Assembly: GCA_963555755.3 (NCBI GenBank)
Contig: OY820905.2
Span: forward strand, 3,008,001 to 3,072,000
Direction: 5' to 3'
Source: Nitrospirales bacterium
GTDB lineage: Bacteria > Nitrospirota > Nitrospiria > Nitrospirales > UBA8639
DNA length: 64,000 nucleotides
In this document: piece after piece, positions 16,463 to 53,517 of the stretch
Layout of the letters: each line of letters opens with the position of its first letter
Position numbering within the stretch: the first letter of the stretch is position 1
Notes under the pieces: model-generated
What the model was told of the DNA's origin: nothing
Seen by the model: the letters and a program-made list of their open reading frames with translations, nothing else
Databases searched by the model: none
Translations under genes and position numbers: made by a program

Positions 16463-16662
16463 AAGACCTTTTTGCCACGCATGATACGGTTGAGTCGGCG
16501 CGGGTGATCACAGACAAATTCAGGATCATACAGAATATATGGTTCTATCCTACCGCCATCCAATTCTGGCCACATGGAGTTTCTTGGCCATGGCTTAGGA
16601 TGGTGAGACCGATCTCCTCCATTGTACCTCGGAACTTCATATGCCTAGAACCATATATTCTG

Positions 16663-18691
16663 GTGCGACCAGGCAAGGCTGGTCTGATGGGAAAGGAGGC
16701 TGCGATGACTCTTTGAAAATCAGTTCATGGTCCAGTGGGTGCAAAACCCACCCAACCAAAGCGGAGCCCGGCAGGGTGGTAGCAAGCCTTGCGCCAGCGC
16801 GGGTAACCGTTATGGCGATGCGTAGGCATGCGAGCGTATGGGCCGCAGGAAATGCAGCCTCGAAAAGTGGAATATCCTGGATGTCTAGGGGCTCGGAATC
16901 TCTGAAGACCACGGCGTCGTCGCCGGTATGGGGCAAGGCGGCGGGGCATCCGGCGGGGTGAACGACTGGGGCACGTACGAAGAGGATGATCCAGGAACCT
17001 GGGAGGCCCTCATTTCTCCCTGGGAGATACCCGGTGCCACGGGGACCCGGTGACCACTCTCCGACGAACACGCGGACGCGGGTGCCTGCGTGACTCGGTG
17101 TAGAACAAGCACTCGCCTCAGGGTAGGCCGACGGCAAGGGGAACCGGAGCTGCGGCTGAGGGGGATGAGGGAGTCGGAGGGCGGCATAGGAGCGACAACG
17201 TCGGGGAACGGGGTGGTGCCTGGACCCGACCGAGCAAAGGCTGCCCGTGTTGATAGGAACGTCAGGAGGGAACCATGACCAAGGCATTGATGTGGGATTC
17301 CATGTCACCGGAACGTTTGACGGTAGCGGAACGAGCGAAACGGGAACCCGAAGGACGATGTCACGCCATGGCCCATCTCATCGATGTGCCAGCTCTGACA
17401 CGCGCCTACCGACGACTCCGCAGGAATGCCGCGGTAGGTGTGGATGGTATCACCAAGGAGCAGTATGGGCAGGAGCTGGAGCGGAATCTCCAGGATCTGC
17501 ATCACCGGCTGAAGACGAAGCGGTATCGTCATCAACCGATTCTCCGGGGATATGTGCCAAAGGGGCAGGGTCGGCACAGGCCGATTGGGATATCGGCGAC
17601 AGAGGACAAAGTGGTCCAAGGGGCGCTGCGGGACGTATGGGAGGCCATATACGAGACGGAGGTTACCGATAGCTCGTATGGGTTTCGACCGAAACGCGGT
17701 GCGCATGACGCGCTTCGGACTTTGAACCGAGCGGGGCATGGTGGGGAAATGAACTGGATCGTGGAGGCGGACATCGTCTCGTACTTTGACAGCGTGGATC
17801 GCACCAAGCTGAAGGAGATGATTCAGAAACGGGTCGCCGATGGGGCGCTCATGCGGCTCATTGGCAAATGCTTGAATGTGGGCGTGCTGGACGGCGAGGG
17901 GTATTCCGAGCCGGACGTGGGCACGGCCCAAGGATCGGTCCTCTCCCCGCTCCTCGGGAACATCTACCTCCATTACGTGCTCGATCTCTGGGTAGAATCC
18001 GAAGTGAAGCCACACCTCCGGGGGAAGTGCATCTTCGTCCGGTATTGTGATGACTTCATCTTTGGTTTCGAATGCCAGGACGATGCGGAGTGGGTGATGC
18101 TGCTGCTGGGAAAGCGGATGGGAACATATGGACTGACCCTGCATCCGGACAAGACTCGCCTGTTGTACTTTGGGCGACCGTTCAAGGGGCAGCAGGCAGG
18201 CAAGGGGCCGGCCAGTTTCGATTTCCTCGGGTTCACGCTGTAGTGGAAGCGGTCCCGATATGGACGCTGGATCTTGGCATTCAAGACCCGAGGTGCACGC
18301 CTCACGCGGGCCATTCGGTCTGTGTACGACCGGTGCCGACGCCATCGGCACCGGTCGGTGAAGGAGCAGCACATGGCGCTCGTGAGGCACGTGCGCGGCC
18401 ACATGAACTATTTTGGCGTGAACGGGAATATCCGTAGCCTGCATCTTCTTCTGGTGCAGGTTCAACGTGCCTGGTTCAAGTGGCTTCGGCGTCGCAGCCA
18501 ACGGACGCGCCTCACGTGGGAGAGGTATCAGGACCTGTTACGGGACTTTCCTCTTCCCCGTCCACGGATCGTCGTCCAGATCTGGGGGCGGTAACCCGCG
18601 AGCCATATCAGCGGAGGAGCCGGATGGTCGAAATGTCCTTGTCCGGTTCTGGCGAGGGCCTCGGCTGGGTGACTGGCCGGGGCTACTCTAC
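16663..18691 (+). mobile_element. group II intron (class E/F-like)
   Basis: 5' GTGCG; DV GAGCCGGATGGTCGAAATGTCCTTGTCCGGTTC; ends ...GCTACTCTAC; internal RT. Confidence 0.9.
17302..18594 (+). pseudogene. group II intron RT/maturase with premature TAG
   Basis: AVGVDG, RPIGI, SYGFRP, AQGSVLSPLLGNIYL, YCDD, FDFLGF; TAG at 18241-18243, after which the frame continues through the maturase domain. Confidence 0.9.
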
Positions 18692-18989
18692 TATGACCCG
18701 TTTCTAGGTTCAAGCACTCACGTGCGTGCCCCCAAGAACCCTCCAGGTGAAAAACCTGTTTTCCGGAGTTGGGTTAAGCGTCTGTCGAAAAAACCCCTCT
18801 CACTTTTGAATCTTTTTATCTTGTCCCTGGCATATTGATCATGGAACCGGCAAAAGTGCCAATTATGGGACCTTGACCTTACCTTGCACCACCCGTACGC
18901 TCTCCTGTCATGTAGAATTTTTCTCGTCGTGTACAGGGCTGTTTCAGCCCCCACTGGCCGTTTGAGTTTTTTAACCATATGAGAATATT

Positions 18990-45662: not shown

Positions 45663-45926
45663 GGGGATGTTCAAAAAGGTGCGCTCAGCCAGATGGTCTC
45701 CAGGCTTCCCATCTGACTTTCCCAGGGGCTCTGCCCCTAGGACGGCCCAAACAGCAGGGCCTGTGACCCCTCGAAGGGGGAACACCCCCTTCGAACATCT
45801 CCCCCCGAGTGGTACTGACTACTCGGTGTGCAAGGCCGCAGGCGCTTTGGCGCGCGGAGCGTACTCATAGTACGTGAGCACGACAAAGGGCCGAGAACGC
45901 CGCTGACGCCCTTTTTCAACATTCCC
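45663..45926. repeat. GTTGAAAAA-family MITE with internal insertion
   Basis: TIRs plus shared core CAAGGCCGCAGG...GTACGTGAGCACG. Confidence 0.75.
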
Positions 45927-46179
45927 ATAATCAGAATCCTGAGTCCATTGGATTCAGGGCAAGGGTGCCCAGTACAACCCTAACATTATGATCAAAAGCT
46001 GTTCATGACACAATTGCTTTTCTCTGATGGGGGGGATCCTGTCGAGAAAGGGGGAAGAGAAGGGAAAGGGAGGAGAAGATACACTCAGGATTGGTGGCCA
46101 ACAGTTTGGGAGGTGTGGAATCGTGAGCCCCCGAACTTTGTATAGGCTCGGGGCCTCACAGACCCTGGGCAATGACTTA

Positions 46180-46325
46180 GGGGCCTGTTCAAAAATGTCC
46201 GTCCAGCAAGGCCGCAGGCCCGTTGGCGCGCGGAACGTACGCAGAGTACGTGAGCACGGCAACGGGCCGAAAACGCCGCTGGGACCCTTCGGAAAGACTC
46301 AGGGCATGTTTTTTCAACAGGCCCC
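46180..46325. repeat. GTTGAAAAA-family MITE, TTA TSD, inserted at the stop codon of the undA-like gene
   Basis: GGGGCCTGTTCAAAAA / TTTTTCAACAGGCCCC. Confidence 0.8.
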
Positions 46326-48191
46326 TTATGCCACGTAAGCTGAACAGTGATCGACCGACAAGTCAATGGGGGAAAACTTGCGATAGCAGGCCTCCAGCGC
46401 GATATGAAAATATTCCATACTGCGTTTGGCGGCCTGGATCACTTTGGGTTGTTCGTGCTCGGAATGGGTCGTCTGAATGATGATCTCCAGGGCTTCCAAG
46501 GCATGCGTTTCATCATAGCGTGCATGATTTTTCATGGATCATGCAGAATTTAGGGTTCTGGCAGCACAATACGATCAGGTGCACATAAATTTATGGCACT
46601 CCTCGTGGGTTATGTCGCCTCTCCTTTTGAGCGAATGGCGTCGTCTTGTATTGTTAGGTAGCTGCAGCATCTCATGCTGCCTCTTCCTGGCGTCATAGCC
46701 CCTTGGTCCGTGGGAAGAGGGCACGATACGATCGTGCAGCTAGTGCGCCTGTGAAGGCGTTTGATCAGGAGGGTGCAAGTCCCTCTCAGGCGAACGTTAC
46801 CAGCCTGAAGTCGACAGTGGTCACTGCGTTTCCGTGAGGAAGGGTGGAGAGCAATCTGAGACGAACGACCAGTCCGTAACGAAAGTGAACTCGATTCGGC
46901 CAAGCCTGTCGGGGAGGCTCCTAGCGATGTCCGAACCCTTGATCGCGCGACGGCAGATCCCTTCGACCTGAGAGTCTGCCCGGGGGATAGACGCGGCAAG
47001 TCACGGCGGTGACGTAACGTGGGAAAGCGACCGTGGCGAAATGGCAAGGTGGTGGTTGGAGATGGAATGGTCGGAAGGTCAAACGAGCTAAGCAGGGAGA
47101 TCTGTCGGGTGAAGGACGTGGACGACGTGTCGTGACCATTCGCAGTGGGGGACGCTGCGTGATCAATGGCCCAGGCCCCTCGGTGCCGTATCGCGTGCCG
47201 CAGGGGAACGAACGAAGCGATGCCGATGACGTTGGATGAAGCGGCTCGACAGAAGTCAGAGCTCTCATAATAGCTGGGAAGCCGTGCAGCATAACGCGGT
47301 GGAGCAAAGGGGAGCAGGAAGGTAGATGTGAAATGACTAAACCGCCGACACGTCGAGCCTCGACCACGCGTCGAGATTACATCCCAGTCACAGTGCCGTT
47401 TTCGGCTACCCCGGCTGGGGAGCTTCCTGGGATCGACCAGTGGGCTCATCGAGCGGTTTGGACAGATCGCATGGTGGCGACACTGATGGCAGACAACGTG
47501 AGAGGAGGCAAATGGCACACGTTGATGGATAAGGTGTCTGGCAGCCTGAACCTGTCCTGCTCGGCCAAGAAGGTCCTGGGCAAGAACGGGGCTGCGGGCG
47601 TTGACCGGCAAACGTGTTCGGAGTTCGCCGAGCATGAGCGGGCGGAACTCGATCGGTTGCAAGCCGAACTGGGTGACGGAACCTATCGTCCGGCAGCGGT
47701 GCGGCGGCGGTGGATTCCCAAACCCGACAGGTCGGCGAAGCGCCCGTTGGGAATTCCGACCGTGCGGGATCGCGTCGTGCAAACGGCAGTGGTCCACGTG
47801 CTTGAGCCGATTATGGACGCCATGTTCCATGCGCGAAGCTGCGGCTGTCGCCACGGACGCGGGTGCCATGATGCCCTGCGGTGCGTCGAGGAATGGCTCG
47901 ACGCCGGGTATGTGTATGTTGTCGACGCGGATGTGCAGGAGTACTACGAGACGATTCCGAAAGATCGACTGGTGGCCAGAGTGCAACAGAAGATCTCGGA
48001 TCGCCGTGTGGTGGGCCTGGTGAAGAAGTGTCTGAACCAGGGGATTCTGGAAGAACTGCGGGAGTGGACGCCGGAAGCCGGTGGGCCGCAAGGCGCGGTG
48101 CTGTCTCCCATGCTGTCGAATGTCTATCTCAACCCCCTGGACCATCGGATGTCCGATCTCGGATTTCAGATGGTGCGCTACGCGGATGACT

Positions 48192-50060
48192 GTGCGCCAC
48201 GAAGGCGCACAAAAGGACGTCAGTCCTTTGTGCAGCCATGCTGCACAAGAGATGAGGGGAGGCCCCTCGAAGTCGCTGTACAGGCGGAGGCTTCAAACCA
48301 CCCATGGCTGCTGCCTTTAAGAGAGGTGGTGGTGAGCGCAATGGGAAAAGGCAGGGCAAGACCCTGTCAGGTATGGACCGTCGAGTCGAACGTGAGTGAA
48401 CCGCTGAGGACGTGTCGAAAGCGTAGGGATGACGTCAAAACCGGGGGGGGATCGTTACTCCGGGAGGAATCTGGCGGGCACCTGGTTACTGGCCAGATGG
48501 CGTCCGGCATGAAGGCGGCGAGAAGGCGGTCCAGGCTCTTGTGGAGAACGTGGGAACCTGTCACCCCGATGCGAAGGGAGAAACGCAAGTGGAGGTCCCA
48601 CAAGCGTGAGAGTACCGAGGCGGGGTACAGGGGCGGAGCAACTCGTAGTAGTGAAGAAGGTTCTGTAATGGAGCTGGAGCGAAGGGGTTGCCTTATCGGG
48701 CTTGAGGGAAGAGAGCAACCAGCGATGGGAGGACTTTCGTGACTCAGGCCAAGCCATTTCCCATTACCCAACGTCAGGTGTGGGAAGCCTACAAACGAGT
48801 GAAAGCCAATCAGGGTGGGGCTGGGGTGGATGGCCAGACGGTGGCGGACTTTGAGCAGAGGTTGGACAACAACCTCTATAAGCTCTGGAACCGGATGGCC
48901 TCTGGGAGTTATCGGCCCCTGCCGGTCAAGCGGGTGGAGATTCCCAAGGCAGGCGGCGGCAGCCGTCCGTTGGGGATCCCGACCGTGGCAGACCGGATTG
49001 CGCAAACAGTGGTCAAACAGGCCCTGGAACCGGAAGTGGAAGCCCACTTTCACCCGGATTCCTATGGCTACCGACCGGGGAAATCAGCGCATCAAGCGAT
49101 TGGGCAGGCGCGCAGGCGGTGTTGGCGCTATGACTGGGTGGTGGACCTTGACATCAAAGGGTTCTTCGACACCATCGACCATGACCGGCTGCTGGCCATG
49201 GTGCGTCGGCATACCCAAGCTACGTGGGTGCTGCTCTATATCGAGCGATGGTTGAAAGCTCCGGAGCAAGTGTTGGACGGGACGGTGCGGGAGCGGACCC
49301 GAGGCACGCCGCAAGGGGGTGTCGTCAGTCCGTTGCTGGCGAACCTGTTTCTGCATTATGTCTTCGATGCGTGGATGAGGCGGTACTATCCGCACATCCC
49401 GTTTGAGCGGTATGCCGACGATGGGGTGTGTCACTGTCGCACCCGGAAACAGGCCGAACATCTGAAAGGGGCGTTAGCGCGGCGCTTTGCGGATTGGGGG
49501 CTTGAACTCCATTCGGAGAAGACCCAGATTGTATACTGCAAAGATGCCGATCGGCGTCTGGGGTATCCAATCACCGCCTTCGACTTCTTGGGCTACACGT
49601 TTCGCCCACGGCGGTCGAAGAACCGGTGGGGGAAATACTTCATCAACTTCAGTCCGGCCATCAGTAATAAGGCGGGGAAGGCGATCCGCCAGGTCGTGCG
49701 GAGCTGGCAGCTCCATCTGCGGAGCGATAAAGCGCTCGACGATCTGGCGCGGATGTTCAATGCGAAGATACGCGGGTGGGTGACCTATTACAGTGCCTTC
49801 TACCAATCGGCGTTGTACCGGTCCCTCCGGCACATCGATCGCAAACTTGTGCTGTGGGCCACTCGCAAGTTCAAGCGGCTGCGAGGCCACAAACGGCGAG
49901 CCGATCAGTGGTTGCGACGCATTGCGTGTCGGCAGCCCAATCTGTTTGCTCACTGGCGGTTGGTGTATGGACAGGCTAGATAAGAAGAGCCGGATGAGCG
50001 GAGACGTTCACGTCCGGTTCTGTGAGCGCCTCGAGGGGTGGTTCCTCGGGGCGACTCGAC
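48192..50060 (+). mobile_element. group II intron class D (inner, twintron)
   Basis: 5' GTGCGCC; DV GAGCCGGATGAGCGGAGACGTTCACGTCCGGTTC; ends GCGACTCGAC. Confidence 0.92.
48739..49983 (+). CDS. ltrA: group II intron RT/maturase, RmInt1-like, no endonuclease domain
   Basis: KPFPI..VWEAYKRVKAN.GGAGVDG, TPQGGVVSPLLAN, ERYADD; ORF intact. Confidence 0.93.
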   Translation: MTQAKPFPITQRQVWEAYKRVKANQGGAGVDGQTVADFEQRLDNNLYKLWNRMASGSYRPLPVKRVEIPKAGGGSRPLGIPTVADRIAQTVVKQALEPEVEAHFHPDSYGYRPGKSAHQAIGQARRRCWRYDWVVDLDIKGFFDTIDHDRLLAMVRRHTQATWVLLYIERWLKAPEQVLDGTVRERTRGTPQGGVVSPLLANLFLHYVFDAWMRRYYPHIPFERYADDGVCHCRTRKQAEHLKGALARRFADWGLELHSEKTQIVYCKDADRRLGYPITAFDFLGYTFRPRRSKNRWGKYFINFSPAISNKAGKAIRQVVRSWQLHLRSDKALDDLARMFNAKIRGWVTYYSAFYQSALYRSLRHIDRKLVLWATRKFKRLRGHKRRADQWLRRIACRQPNLFAHWRLVYGQAR

Positions 50061-50589
50061 TTGTCATCCTGTGTCGCACGCTGGAAGAAGCCGAAGCGGC
50101 GCTGGCCGAGGTGCGCCGGTGGGTGGAGGCCAATGGGCTGACACTGCATCCCGAGAAAACACACATCGTGGACTCGCGGGAGAAGAGCTTTTCGTTTCTG
50201 GGCTATTCGTTCCGAGGCCGGCTGCGGTTTCCACGAGCGAAGAGCCACCGAAAGTTCATCGCCCGCATCCGCGAGCTGACGCCGCAGAAATCGGGCGACT
50301 CGCTGGCGGTAATTCTCCACCGGCTCACTCGCTCGACGCAAGGGTGGTTCAACTACTTTCGGCACTGTTTTTGGAACATCTTCAAGGCCTACGATGGAAT
50401 GATCCGTCGGCGGTTGCGCCGGATGCTTCTGAAAAGGAACCGAAGGAATCGACAACGCCTCGCACGCAATCAACGGTGGCCGAACGCCTTCTTTGCGGAT
50501 CATGGGTTCACGAGCCTGAATGATGCCCATATTCGTTTCGTCCACTCCATAGGAACCTACTGACTGGAGAGCCGTATGCGGGAGAACTG

Positions 50590-52450
50590 CAAGCCGTTCA
50601 CTTAATCTGTTGACACAAACCAGCAAACAGACATAAACAGCGCTTGTTTGCTGGCTTTCTTGTTTTGGATCATGCAGAAAAAATCTTCCGCAACTTCTAC
50701 GCTGAAGCACCCTCGGATACCGCTCGAGTACGGTGGCTTCCAGATCAACCACTGCAAGTCTCCGGTCTGCTCGAACTACGGCGTTCCGCCAGAACAAACA
50801 TCGGTGCGTGGAAAAAATAGCTACACTCTGGATTCACGCAACCAAGGCATTTCATCCTGTATCTGCACGTCCTGCGGCGAAGGATTCCCTCTCAAGAGCA
50901 ACCTCGGCATCGCAGAAGAAGTCGAGCGCATGTCGGCCTACCTGTCGCCTCGTGAGATGGCGTTCTGCCGTAACGATGCCTGTACCAACCATACCGGTCA
51001 GGTGCCCGTAGGTACCGCTGGGGCATATGCCTCGTTCGGCAAGACCGCGATTGGCAGCCCCCGCTGGCGCGGTAGCGTCTGCGGTACGACGTTCTCACAG
51101 AACACCAAGGCCACCGCCCGGCAGCGGGAACATCACAAGAACAAGACCATTTTCAAACTGCTGGTCAACAAGCTGCCCGTGCGCCGAATCATCGAAGTCG
51201 CCGACATCCACCCCAAGACCTTCTACCACCGCCTCGACTTCCTCCATCGCCAGTGCCAATCATTTGCCGCCCACCGCGAGCACGCCCTATCCACCCTCCC
51301 CATTCGGCGACTGTACCTCGGCGTGGACCGGCAGGACGACCTTGTGAACTGGATGGTTCGCAAGGACAAGCGCAACATTCAGCTATCGGCCATTGCATCA
51401 GTGGACAACGAACACGGTTACGGCTTCGGTGTCCACCTTCACTTCGACCCTTCTCTGGACAGCGAAGCTGTCCAAGCCGAAGTCGAGAAGAGCGGCGACC
51501 TTGGCATGCCCTATCCGCATCGTCGCGTTGCACGTCTGTGGCTCAATGCAGACCATGAGCGAGCCAGTGCCAAATCCCTACGCACTTCGCGGCGCAAACC
51601 CGGACTGCCAACGCAGATCGATGAAGCCTATGCCGCAGCATTGATGCGTGACGATATCGAAAGCCCCGATGCGCCGTCGCCCGTAGAACGACTTCCTGAA
51701 TACGGGATGCCAACCCATGGCGAGTACACCATGTCTGGGCATTTTTTCTTCCTCAAACGCCTGCTGGGCAATGTCCAAAAGTGGCGCTTCTTTATCGACC
51801 AAGACCCTGGACTGCGAGCCGCGTGCCTATCGGCGTTCCACGACGAGATCCGAGGCCGCACGGCGGAGGCCTTCTCTGTTCGCATCACCAAAGATCTGAC
51901 GGTGGACGAAACGCGTCAAAAATACAACGAAGCGACGATGCTGTTCGTGCACGCAGAGCTCGCGCACCCAAAGATGAAGCCGCAGGAGGTCAAGTTGCTG
52001 CTGATCAAAGAGCGTCTGGCCTGTATGACGCCGCACGGGAAGTGGCAGGATCGGTGGCTTGACCATCCTTTCCCGACCATGAGCGAGCCAGAGAAGACAG
52101 TGGCCTCCCTCACCAATCTGGGCGACTACGACGAAGACCACAAAGCTTGGCTCTACAACAAAGCGAGCGTGCATGGTGTCGATTCGTTCTTCAACCAAGT
52201 GCGTCGACGGCTCTCCCTGCTGGAGCGTCCGATCCATTCCAAATCCAACAATGGTCGGATATGGAACGGATATTCTCCATATAACCCGGGTAATGTTGCA
52301 AAAGTACTCGACATCATGCGCACGGTGCATAACTACATCCTGACCGGCAAGGATGGCAAGACGCCAGCTGTGCGACTTGGATTGGCCCAAGCGCCGCTGG
52401 ACTACGAAGCCATTATTTATTTTGCATCAACAGATTAAGTGAACGGCTTG
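50590..52450 (+). mobile_element. unclassified insertion sequence
   Basis: 24-bp perfect TIR CAAGCCGTTCACTTAATCTGTTGA; 9-bp TSD GGAGAACTG at 50581-50589 and 52451-52459. Confidence 0.92.
50672..52438 (+). CDS. putative transposase (Cys-rich N-terminus, HTH, acidic core; IS1/IS1595-like)
   Basis: Only long sense ORF in the element; CxxxxC/CxxC clusters, C-terminal HNY...KTPAVRLGL; stop codon lies in the right TIR. Confidence 0.75.
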   Translation: MQKKSSATSTLKHPRIPLEYGGFQINHCKSPVCSNYGVPPEQTSVRGKNSYTLDSRNQGISSCICTSCGEGFPLKSNLGIAEEVERMSAYLSPREMAFCRNDACTNHTGQVPVGTAGAYASFGKTAIGSPRWRGSVCGTTFSQNTKATARQREHHKNKTIFKLLVNKLPVRRIIEVADIHPKTFYHRLDFLHRQCQSFAAHREHALSTLPIRRLYLGVDRQDDLVNWMVRKDKRNIQLSAIASVDNEHGYGFGVHLHFDPSLDSEAVQAEVEKSGDLGMPYPHRRVARLWLNADHERASAKSLRTSRRKPGLPTQIDEAYAAALMRDDIESPDAPSPVERLPEYGMPTHGEYTMSGHFFFLKRLLGNVQKWRFFIDQDPGLRAACLSAFHDEIRGRTAEAFSVRITKDLTVDETRQKYNEATMLFVHAELAHPKMKPQEVKLLLIKERLACMTPHGKWQDRWLDHPFPTMSEPEKTVASLTNLGDYDEDHKAWLYNKASVHGVDSFFNQVRRRLSLLERPIHSKSNNGRIWNGYSPYNPGNVAKVLDIMRTVHNYILTGKDGKTPAVRLGLAQAPLDYEAIIYFASTD

Positions 52451-53517
52451 GGAGAACTGCACGTACGGTTCGGAGGGAGGGGGAGCGCAACTCAATGCGC
52501 CCTCCCTACCCCTATCACAAGAAAGAAAGCTCACAGGAAGCAACGCCATGGCCAAGAAACTCCATGTGGCCAGAATTGGATGGCGGTAGGATAGAACCAT
52601 ATATTCTGTATGATCCTTTTTCATCCAGGCGTACGCGCGCTTTGTTAAATGGATCCCGTCCCGACCGTCATATTTGGGAAATCCTTCCAATACCGCACGG
52701 GCAATTCCTTGGGTGGTGCCCTCGATGGCATAGGTCATGGCACCCATGCTTTCCGCCAGGGATCCGCGCAAATTAATGGACCACATGTAATGCGTGAGGG
52801 CCTCCACTTCGGGAAGAACCGGGAAGTCATGCAGCTCTTCACGAGTGATACCAAAGGCGTCGGTCATGTCCATCCACTGCTTCGCATGCCATTTTTCCAC
52901 CCGAACGTTGTCGATGAGAATCTCCCGGGCAAAGGCCTCCTGGGCTTTCGCAATATTCAAGGCAATCCATTGAGGAAAGGTTTCGATGAAGGGATACAGT
53001 TGCATCAACCACCCGCGCATTTGTTCAAGGGACAGGGTCCCCTGGGATGTTTCTTTCACCAGGGGGCAATTGAAGATACGTTGCTGATAGGGGTCCGTTT
53101 CATTGTTCAGATGAACAATCCATGGCGGATGTGGGGAAAATGATGGCCGTTTGCTCCCAGACACCTCGGTGAACCGGCTGGCTTGATGGGGAAAGGTCAG
53201 TAGCTGTGACATGTCATCCTCCCTGACGAACGAATTTTTTTTAATAAAGATAAGCCCCCTTCTGACAGCTTATTGACACTATCGCAAAACCGTTGCCAGG
53301 CAAATTTTACCCATCACGGGCTTGATTTTCACCCATAACGGGGACGACGACTGACAGTATTCACAATATTTTCAATTGGTTCTAGAGTGGATTAGAAGAC
53401 TACGATCAGATGGGCTGAAACGGAGATGGGTTGATCGCTGGCGTCAGAAAGTTGACAGGTGTTGAAAAGATTGACGACAGCGATCTTCCGATTGTAAGGG
53501 CCCGGGGATGTCTCACC

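Follow-up and report, generated by a model that had tools for sequence, protein, structure and literature searches.

The 64,000-nucleotide stretch of DNA analyzed here, referred to as the window, corresponds to positions 3008001 to 3072000 of contig C1 in the genome of a Nitrospirales bacterium, G000, which comprises two contigs and 4.62 Mb. Within it, a host gene is split by a miniature inverted-repeat transposable element (MITE), the MITE by a group II intron (the outer intron), and the outer intron by both a second group II intron (the inner intron) and an insertion sequence (IS). All of the junctions are exact to the base, and each mobile layer is represented by further copies with identical ends elsewhere in G000. 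A first-pass annotation, made from the sequence alone, had proposed this four-layer nesting, and its coordinates and junctions proved to be exact, with the same ends repeated in the other copies. The IS had been said to split domain V (DV) of the outer intron within a 9-bp target duplication; indeed, GGAGAACTG is found at 50581-50589 and again at 52451-52459, inside DV. Listed here are the features of the outer intron and of the IS, including the two parts of the open reading frame (ORF) for the intron reverse transcriptase (RT).

46743-52515, plus strand: outer group II intron, its own parts being 46743-48191, 50061-50589, and 52460-52515
46721-46737, plus strand: 7-bp hairpin located 5 nt before the outer intron, from the sequence
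47333-48191, plus strand: first part of the outer RT ORF, ending at the RYADD motif (RVT_1)
50061-50563, plus strand: second part of the outer RT ORF (end of RVT_1 and GIIM), with the frame open over the junction
50569-50589, plus strand: 5' strand of the outer DV with the AGC triad, and the first copy of the 9-bp duplication (50581-50589), from the sequence
50590-52450, plus strand: insertion sequence of 1861 bp with 30-nt inverted ends (50590-50619 and 52421-52450), with three more copies at 99%
50672-52438, plus strand: transposase of 588 aa with zinc ribbons, a helix-turn-helix (HTH), an RNase H fold, and the predicted catalytic residues D219, D376, and D504, from a structure model and homologue alignment
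52451-52515, plus strand: second copy of the 9-bp duplication (52451-52459), 3' strand of DV (52460-52471), and domain VI (DVI), from the sequence

All four copies of the IS in G000 lie in a DV loop and share one 9-bp duplication; they occupy at least two intron families and occur in both orientations. Given about 35 DVs (34 RT loci) in 4.6 Mb, the chance of four out of four landings at one register is negligible by our own arithmetic. For a wider census, 96 loci were collected, namely 15 from genomes, the best 80 of 126 from metagenomes, and one viral. Fifty-four of these were usable, being close relatives (69% or more) in which at least one junction had 21 bases of flank; the remaining loci were either distant or missing an end. 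Junctions were scored against the Rfam DV consensus in a fixed register, and those matching at 8 of 12 positions or more were taken as DV-like, a first descriptor that matched only 34-nt DVs and false sites having been dropped. Such a match was observed at 56 of 87 distinct junctions (49 of 79 outside G000) as compared to 0.9% of random positions, and 53 of the 56 DV-like junctions display the 9-nt spacing of a 33-nt DV. Following a context check by rule and by eye, with identical flanks merged, 38 of the 76 distinct junctions outside G000 were classified as DV, four as unsure, and 34 as not DV; in terms of elements, 34 of 54 lie in DV. A DVI is positioned behind 24 of 28 3' halves, and an RT precedes 11 of 27 5' halves, many flanks being too short. 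The hosts named in the records include Alpha-, Beta-, and Gammaproteobacteria. Among 400 genomes of the phylum only distant relatives (47-49%) were found, in four genomes, and the viral contigs yielded one distant locus and no matches to the end pattern.

It could be argued that a few ancient insertions, carried along with their host introns or with plasmids, gave rise to all of the DV cases, or that the latter are assembly chimeras of repeats. Mismatched flanks are common, the region at 1.007-1.029 Mb of C1 is rearranged, and no read spans the stack in the window. The census, however, contains 37 different DV halves (17 on the 5' side and 20 on the 3' side), with the intron in the same orientation as the IS in 22 cases and in the opposite orientation in 24, and thus they do not reflect one inherited event. 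In addition, the transposases, at 70-90% identity, are spread across the whole of the clade described below, seven elements outside G000 (L003/L011, L008, L009, L022, L025, L037, and L040) have both DV halves together with an exact 9-bp duplication, and an intron with a split DV is not expected to retrohome. This explanation is already largely refuted, and we consider it highly improbable.

The terminal inverted repeats, target duplication, and several copies are those of an IS with a DDE transposase. In an alignment of 72 rows, D219 and D376 are invariant and D504 is present in 90% or more. The model of the protein calculated from this alignment has a pLDDT of 86.8 and places the three catalytic positions on a strand, at a strand end, and on a helix. 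Its closest structural match is ISCth4 of the IS256 family (PDB 6xg8; Z = 12.1, rmsd 3.9, 238 aligned residues), followed by Tn5 (10.5), TnsB, and integrases, the top rows being transposases and integrases; Foldseek returned weak rows only, with ISCth4 first. The predicted fold is thus that of a DDE enzyme of the RNase H type. No transposase family was assigned by Pfam, a PDB sequence search, or Foldseek, a result that does not exclude an existing family. IS256/Mutator-like transposases are characterized by a fold with a helical insertion, an 8-9-bp duplication, and a family profile; such an affiliation may apply here, the best fold match and the 9-bp duplication agreeing with it, whereas Pfam gave no match. 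Membership in the IS1 family is not supported, the NCBIfam IS1 profile scoring 25.5 bits against a cut-off of 100 and covering only residues 123-196, that is, the zinc ribbon and the HTH. DDE_Tnp_IS1 is absent among the 25 families listed for 72 members, and in the Atlas the proteins fall into unnamed clusters, the nearest named one being DDE_Tnp_IS1 at 0.88. What sets the protein apart from ISCth4 and the IS1-family transposases is the low identity (12%), the profile score, the aspartate at the third catalytic position, and the length of 588 aa.

The transposase tree, built by a quick method with a midpoint root, contains 86 proteins, rows covering under 330 residues having been excluded. All 28 rows labeled DV fall in one clade of 48 members (SH-aLRT 100, branch 0.44) that contains no terminator row. 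In the other clades (44-58% identity), at least four A's occur in a fixed 7-base window in 26 of 34 half-sites, and none of the 34 is DV-like; the A-run is present in 3 of 76 in the DV clade. The de novo search for ends with an exact duplication succeeded at 3 of 36 distant loci, and ends were then set by motif and by eye. In L013, L078, and L085 the 9-bp duplication lies in the loop of a bidirectional terminator, and, as judged by the flanking sequences, the other clades insert into the loops of intrinsic terminators. The DV clade would have arisen from such terminator-targeting relatives by a change in half-site. Note that the IS end (50590-50601) begins CAAGCCGT, which resembles the 5' strand of DV, (G/A)AGCCGT (50569-50575), whereas the ends in the terminator clade read CAAGCCCC and their targets often AAAGCCC. 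The end and the target might be read by the same part of the protein. One locus, L107 (G002:C10:105697-105866), is a 170-bp miniature that retains both ends of the IS and lacks an ORF; it has neither a DV flank nor a clear duplication.

With respect to how the target is read, the nine duplicated bases do not change with the orientation of the IS, and their center coincides with the axis about which the lower DV stem is symmetric, a geometry that would be expected if a dimer makes a staggered cut in a symmetric site. Of 16 possible symmetric pairs, 8-10 are present at the DV sites, as compared to 3.9 at random. The 34 half-sites of the DV clade that are not DV have the consensus CCG-N6-GGGTT.CC, and a matrix derived from these alone places the four G000 sites in the top 0-22 of 4.6 million positions, whereas 34-nt DVs, such as that of the inner intron, reach only the top 2%. 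The IS enters DV at one register in either orientation, and the DDE transposase would make a 9-bp staggered cut. We infer that a dimer reads half-sites resembling CCG-N6-GG on both sides, aided by the inverted-repeat character of the target, such that a 33-nt DV would be a near-ideal site and a 34-nt DV would be off by one base. From the position of the IS within DV, its arrival likely kills splicing of the intron.

Alternatively, the transposase may recognize DNA structure, in the form of a DV or terminator extruded as a hairpin or cruciform, with the sequence serving only for tuning. In every target class of the family the cut falls at the center of an inverted repeat, the DV sites have fold energies of -8 to -13 kcal/mol as compared to an average of -3.3 for random sites, and the strict form of the matrix considered below leaves about a thousand equal sites unused. 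Yet two of six complete non-DV sites hardly fold (about -3) and still keep the CC and GG positions. The DV clade also avoids terminators, which are the best genomic hairpins (3 of 76), and 34-nt DVs, which fold equally well, are rarely used (3 of 56). Recognition by structure is therefore an unlikely, although not negligible, explanation.

It is also conceivable that insertion is loose and that only harmless events survive, in which case the DV of a dispensable intron would be a safe haven, perhaps favored by the silencing of a parasite. Half of the junctions lie outside DV, and bacterial introns are mostly located outside essential genes (PMC4424553). Survival does not account for insertion at a single fixed base of a dispensable 2-kb intron, however, and the surviving non-DV sites share the same consensus, while other intergenic DNA is equally safe. 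We regard this as improbable. A scheme in which the transposase is recruited by the RNA or protein of the intron, for example by retrohoming intermediates, rather than by the target DNA alone would address the excess of DV over consensus-equal sites. The shortest copies, however, have no guide-sized non-coding region (82 nt on the left and 12 nt on the right in the window), there is no strand bias (22 versus 24), and the sister clades need no intron. There is little reason to credit this scheme.

Several observations weigh against symmetric reading of DV by the transposase as a complete account. About half of the junctions lie outside DV, which is a preference and not an obligate target. Four later junctions comprised one DV and three others, two having variant ends. 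Many metagenome elements have unmatched left and right flanks, the duplication agreeing at 8 or 9 of 9 positions in 20 of all those scored, and collapsed repeats or recombination blur the element counts. Within G000 itself, the IS copy at C1 775532 joins the halves of two different DVs. The DV and terminator labels were set partly by eye, L041 carries a DV label in the tree though it is not DV, and a quick, midpoint-rooted tree gives no direction of target change. When the nine DV-like half-sites are removed from the matrix, leaving 25, the G000 sites rank 4th to 1404th, and one of the top 30 sites is a DV. Because the ranks drop with this stricter matrix, the linear non-DV consensus does not fully explain the choice of target. 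Reading of the sequence is real but not shown to be sufficient, and further DV bases or the formation of a hairpin likely add to it. Finally, the transposase in the window has a Cys-to-Gly change in a zinc finger and may be inactive.

Taken together, we consider it likely that the stack represents four target-specific elements landing on one another and that the clade to which the IS belongs prefers the DV loop, probably by way of a dimer that reads a symmetric DNA target centered on the DV stem. A broader proposal, which we favor on balance, is that of a DNA transposon lineage specialized on the catalytic core of group II introns, one that switched from terminator hairpins to DV, the ribozyme sequence most conserved in bacteria, as a universal safe landing site, kills the intron upon arrival, and belongs to an unnamed DDE family with a clade-specific target code.

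The annotation had also held that both late insertions hit the most conserved parts of the outer intron. They do, and the cause is targeting rather than chance. The other of these late insertions is the inner intron, which was correctly placed at GAT GAC T|TT, immediately after the YADD codons. Its features are as follows.

48192-50060, plus strand: inner group II intron of 1869 nt (Rfam RF01999 and RF00029; three G000 copies)
48421-48426, plus strand: predicted exon-binding site 2 (EBS2, GCGTAG), which pairs with exon positions -14 to -9 (R-Y-A codons) at 6/6, 6/6, and 5/6 positions in three exons, as judged by eye
48450-48456, plus strand: predicted EBS1 (GATCGTT), which pairs with exon positions -7 to -1 (D-D codons) at 6, 7, and 6 of 7 positions; it is the best of 560 positions and lies in a hairpin loop
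48739-49983, plus strand: inner RT/maturase ORF of 414 aa without an endonuclease domain (Pfam/NCBIfam)

The three copies of the inner intron in G000 are 100% identical and interrupt three different RT genes, in each case a single base past the RYADD codons. Twelve related loci were examined, and the five among them that begin GTGCGCC follow RY(A/S)DD. This one-base-behind position and the predicted EBS1 and EBS2 pairings are those of an RYADD-homing intron, and the inner intron would have reached its site by retrohoming. Seventy-six Sinorhizobium plasmids are among the 452 records obtained for the inner intron at E below 1e-100. The earlier class D label is kept as class D-like; the class is defined by an RT that groups with RmInt1 and by the lack of an endonuclease domain, and the inner ORF has no such domain. 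Introns M.a.I5, UA.I3, P.l.I2, and B.th.I3 target the same RYADD codons and, as described in PMC2504315, are likewise endonuclease-less, about 1.8 kb long, positioned one base behind RYADD of other RT genes, and found as twintrons. Compared by description rather than by sequence identity, there is no essential difference, and RYADD targeting by the inner intron is an already published habit.

The outer intron had been labeled as a IIC intron behind a hairpin. The hairpin is indeed present, but the IIC label does not hold. The DV stem of IIC introns is shortened, whereas the outer DV has 33 nt with an AGC triad and a 5-nt loop and is followed by a long DVI, and the RNA outside the ORF amounts to 590 + 82 = about 670 nt. 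In IIC introns the DV carries a CGC triad (PMC7923331), and 412 nt lie outside the ORF of one such intron (about 410), as compared to 450-700 nt for IIE/IIF introns (PMC3753933). The AGC triad, the 33-nt DV, and the size exclude IIC. A 5-nt DV loop is a IIE/IIF feature and a long DVI that of IIF (PMC3753933, PMC3552965), and thus, on the basis of the DV triad, DV length, loop, DVI, and size, the outer intron fits a IIE/IIF-like structure with a IIC-like target context. An uninterrupted sister copy scores 56.9 bits with Rfam RF00029, there is a weak match to Rfam D1-D4-4, and plasmid matches reach only 50%. The EBS scan revealed no single distinct site, IIC introns being characterized by a short EBS1 and no EBS2. 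Three more copies of the outer intron occur in G000 at 98-99%, all in MITE DNA. A hairpin followed by AGC(T/G)A precedes the intron at 4/4 sites in G000 and at 4/4 in G007, a genome of the same genus, with differing stem sequences; although a stem-loop just before the insertion site (8/8 sites) is a IIC trait, it is confounded here with the constant AGC(T/G)A, and either could serve as the cue by which the intron entered behind the MITE hairpin. Like IIE/IIF introns, it has no endonuclease. It differs from them by its insertion behind a hairpin, a habit described for IIC, its class being set by DV and size rather than by an RT tree. Further marks of IIE/IIF introns are an RT that belongs with class E, F, or g1-g4 and an alpha' located in a terminal loop.

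The outermost layers are the MITE and the host gene.

52617-53212, minus strand: 5' part of the host gene, codons 1-199 (Pfam TENA_THI-4 and Haem_oxygenas_2)
46326-46527, minus strand: 3' part of the host gene to the stop codon (stack-free ORF; 92% identity to L112)
46528-46535, no strand: left copy of the 8-bp target duplication TTTTTCAT, from the sequence
52617-52624, no strand: right copy of the 8-bp target duplication TTTTTCAT, from the sequence
46536-46742, plus strand: bases 1-207 of the 308-bp MITE, from other genome copies
52516-52616, plus strand: bases 208-308 of the MITE, from other genome copies

The host gene encodes a TenA/CADD-like iron redox enzyme, the NCBIfam CADD-like match being under the cut-off. 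It is interrupted at codon 199, and removal of the stack restores an ORF of 265 aa, in keeping with the 8-bp duplication and 308-bp MITE that had been annotated. Empty alleles exist as well: with matches in 10 of 31 genomes, the gene is uninterrupted in at least four relatives (L112-L115). The MITE has inverted ends and 17 full-length matches elsewhere in G000, 12 of which are flanked by an exact 8-bp duplication. A frameshifted ISAon1/ISL3 transposase lies between MITE-like ends at C1 3186452-3187876, and an ISL3/ISAon1-type enzyme with similar ends probably mobilized the MITE when it split the gene. In all four IS copies, the transposase start codon lies within a 13-base repeat of the beginning of the MITE end (window 50667-50679), probably by chance. 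A further intron family, starting GTGCGACCAGGCAA (Rfam D1-D4-6; window about 16660-18700, C1 3544567 and 4120644), is found in MITEs that have the same GGATCAT ends, where it sits inside the terminal inverted repeat. Directly behind the host stop codon (window 45830-45913 and 46179-46330) lies another dispersed palindromic repeat, whose G000 copies number well over a hundred.

Misassembly of the locus is not supported. In run X1 the depth is about 98-109 in the unique flanks, 314 in the inner intron, 346 in the IS, and 340-370 in the outer intron, ratios that are close to the assembled copies of three, four, and four. Contigs from X2 cross both inner-intron junctions at single-copy depth (48165-48221, depth 232; 50032-50112, depth 211; unique flanks 212-242). 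An RNA run from another study, X8, gave a contig (49985-50394) that crosses 50060|50061 and is the only piece doing so with at least 31 letters on each side. Pieces at the junction of gene and MITE reach 28-29 nt into the MITE. Short-read support is limited to the inner-intron junctions, given that one piece at an IS end covers only the 24 nt common to both ends and no piece spans the stack. Both duplications are intact at this locus, which argues against a chimera.

The order of events had been called readable. The nesting gives the gene, the MITE, the outer intron, and then the IS and inner intron, but the order of the last two cannot be read from the junctions. Divergence from the copy majority is in line with the nesting, being 13 per kb for the MITE, 4.0 for the outer intron, 1.1 for the IS, and 0 for the inner intron (4, 8, 2, and 0 changes); the two changes versus none weakly suggest that the IS may have preceded the inner intron. 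It is possible that the outer intron was already inside the MITE before the latter jumped. Copies do recombine in G000, since the outer-intron copy at C1 1009665 has exons from two different MITE sites and the DV halves at C1 775532 differ. Where copies of the MITE, outer intron, and IS in G000 differ, most of the changes are A>C or C>A transversions (68 of 80 in 14 MITE copies and 16 of 22 in the outer intron), a pattern reminiscent of weak repair of oxidized guanine. As a predicted outcome, the outer intron would be unable to splice or move and the host gene would be dead, with the inner intron still active.

A second, rearranged stack is located at G000:C1:1007580-1029102. It contains MITE pieces, two outer-intron copies, an IS in DV in the opposite orientation, and a DV-homing intron, and a 748-bp repeat (five copies, 8-bp duplication) lies inside the IS. 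An intron family starting GTGTGTCCAGGTAA occupies 13 or more loci of C1 (for example 243196, 798331, 1023666, and 2161372-2165360), in most cases immediately following the 3' strand of the DV of another intron, with three in tandem at one locus.

If the proposed preference for DV is correct, the IS lineage would offer a specific cause for the lost or broken intron 3' ends that have often been noted (PMC4496777). Its copies in DV would be points of recombination between unrelated introns, with one hybrid seen (C1 775532). A large group of "hypothetical" proteins (644 matches) would gain a function, and the terminator-reading and DV-reading clades, with the same 9-bp geometry, would provide a natural series for mapping the target-setting part of the protein by means of chimeras. 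Site-directed, single-protein integration is a potential use. The literature search revealed no IS that targets DV; ISfinder/TnCentral and most subscription journals lay outside of it, and the family may be named there.

A distant member of the family (22% identity, E = 2e-26) is the hypothetical protein beside dfrG in L123 (NZ_CP118551.1), of a type found on about a hundred enterococcal and staphylococcal plasmids. The 3,276-bp dfrG element with ORFU1 has been described as a putative insertion element that encodes a hypothetical protein (PMC8544886). It resembles the present IS in that this protein lies within 27-bp inverted ends 3,276 bp apart, but it is very distant, has another end sequence, carries a passenger gene, and has no DV target that could be seen.

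The stack as such had been judged unusual, a claim that we do not uphold. Because the target of every element is fixed, be it the MITE hairpin, the RYADD codons, or the DV loop, stacks are to be expected, a second one exists in G000, and the four-layer stack is a by-product of target-specific elements and of modest interest. Other IS target attC, xrs, or terminators. Twintrons, as had been stated, are known, with nests of up to five introns formed by repeated site-specific homing into other introns in Methanosarcina acetivorans (PMC4424553); here the stack combines two intron classes with a MITE and a DNA transposon, and a protein gene is broken. IS elements that target REP sequences similarly employ a conserved, repeated palindrome as a landing site (PMC1525189), whereas the present IS lands in the catalytic hairpin of a ribozyme and its transposase family is unnamed. 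Usually it is the intron that enters the IS, a well-known habit exemplified by RmInt1 and ISRm2011-2 (PMC4496777); here the direction is reversed, the IS entering the intron. The RYADD homing of the inner intron being already known, the new part is the IS lineage that prefers DV.

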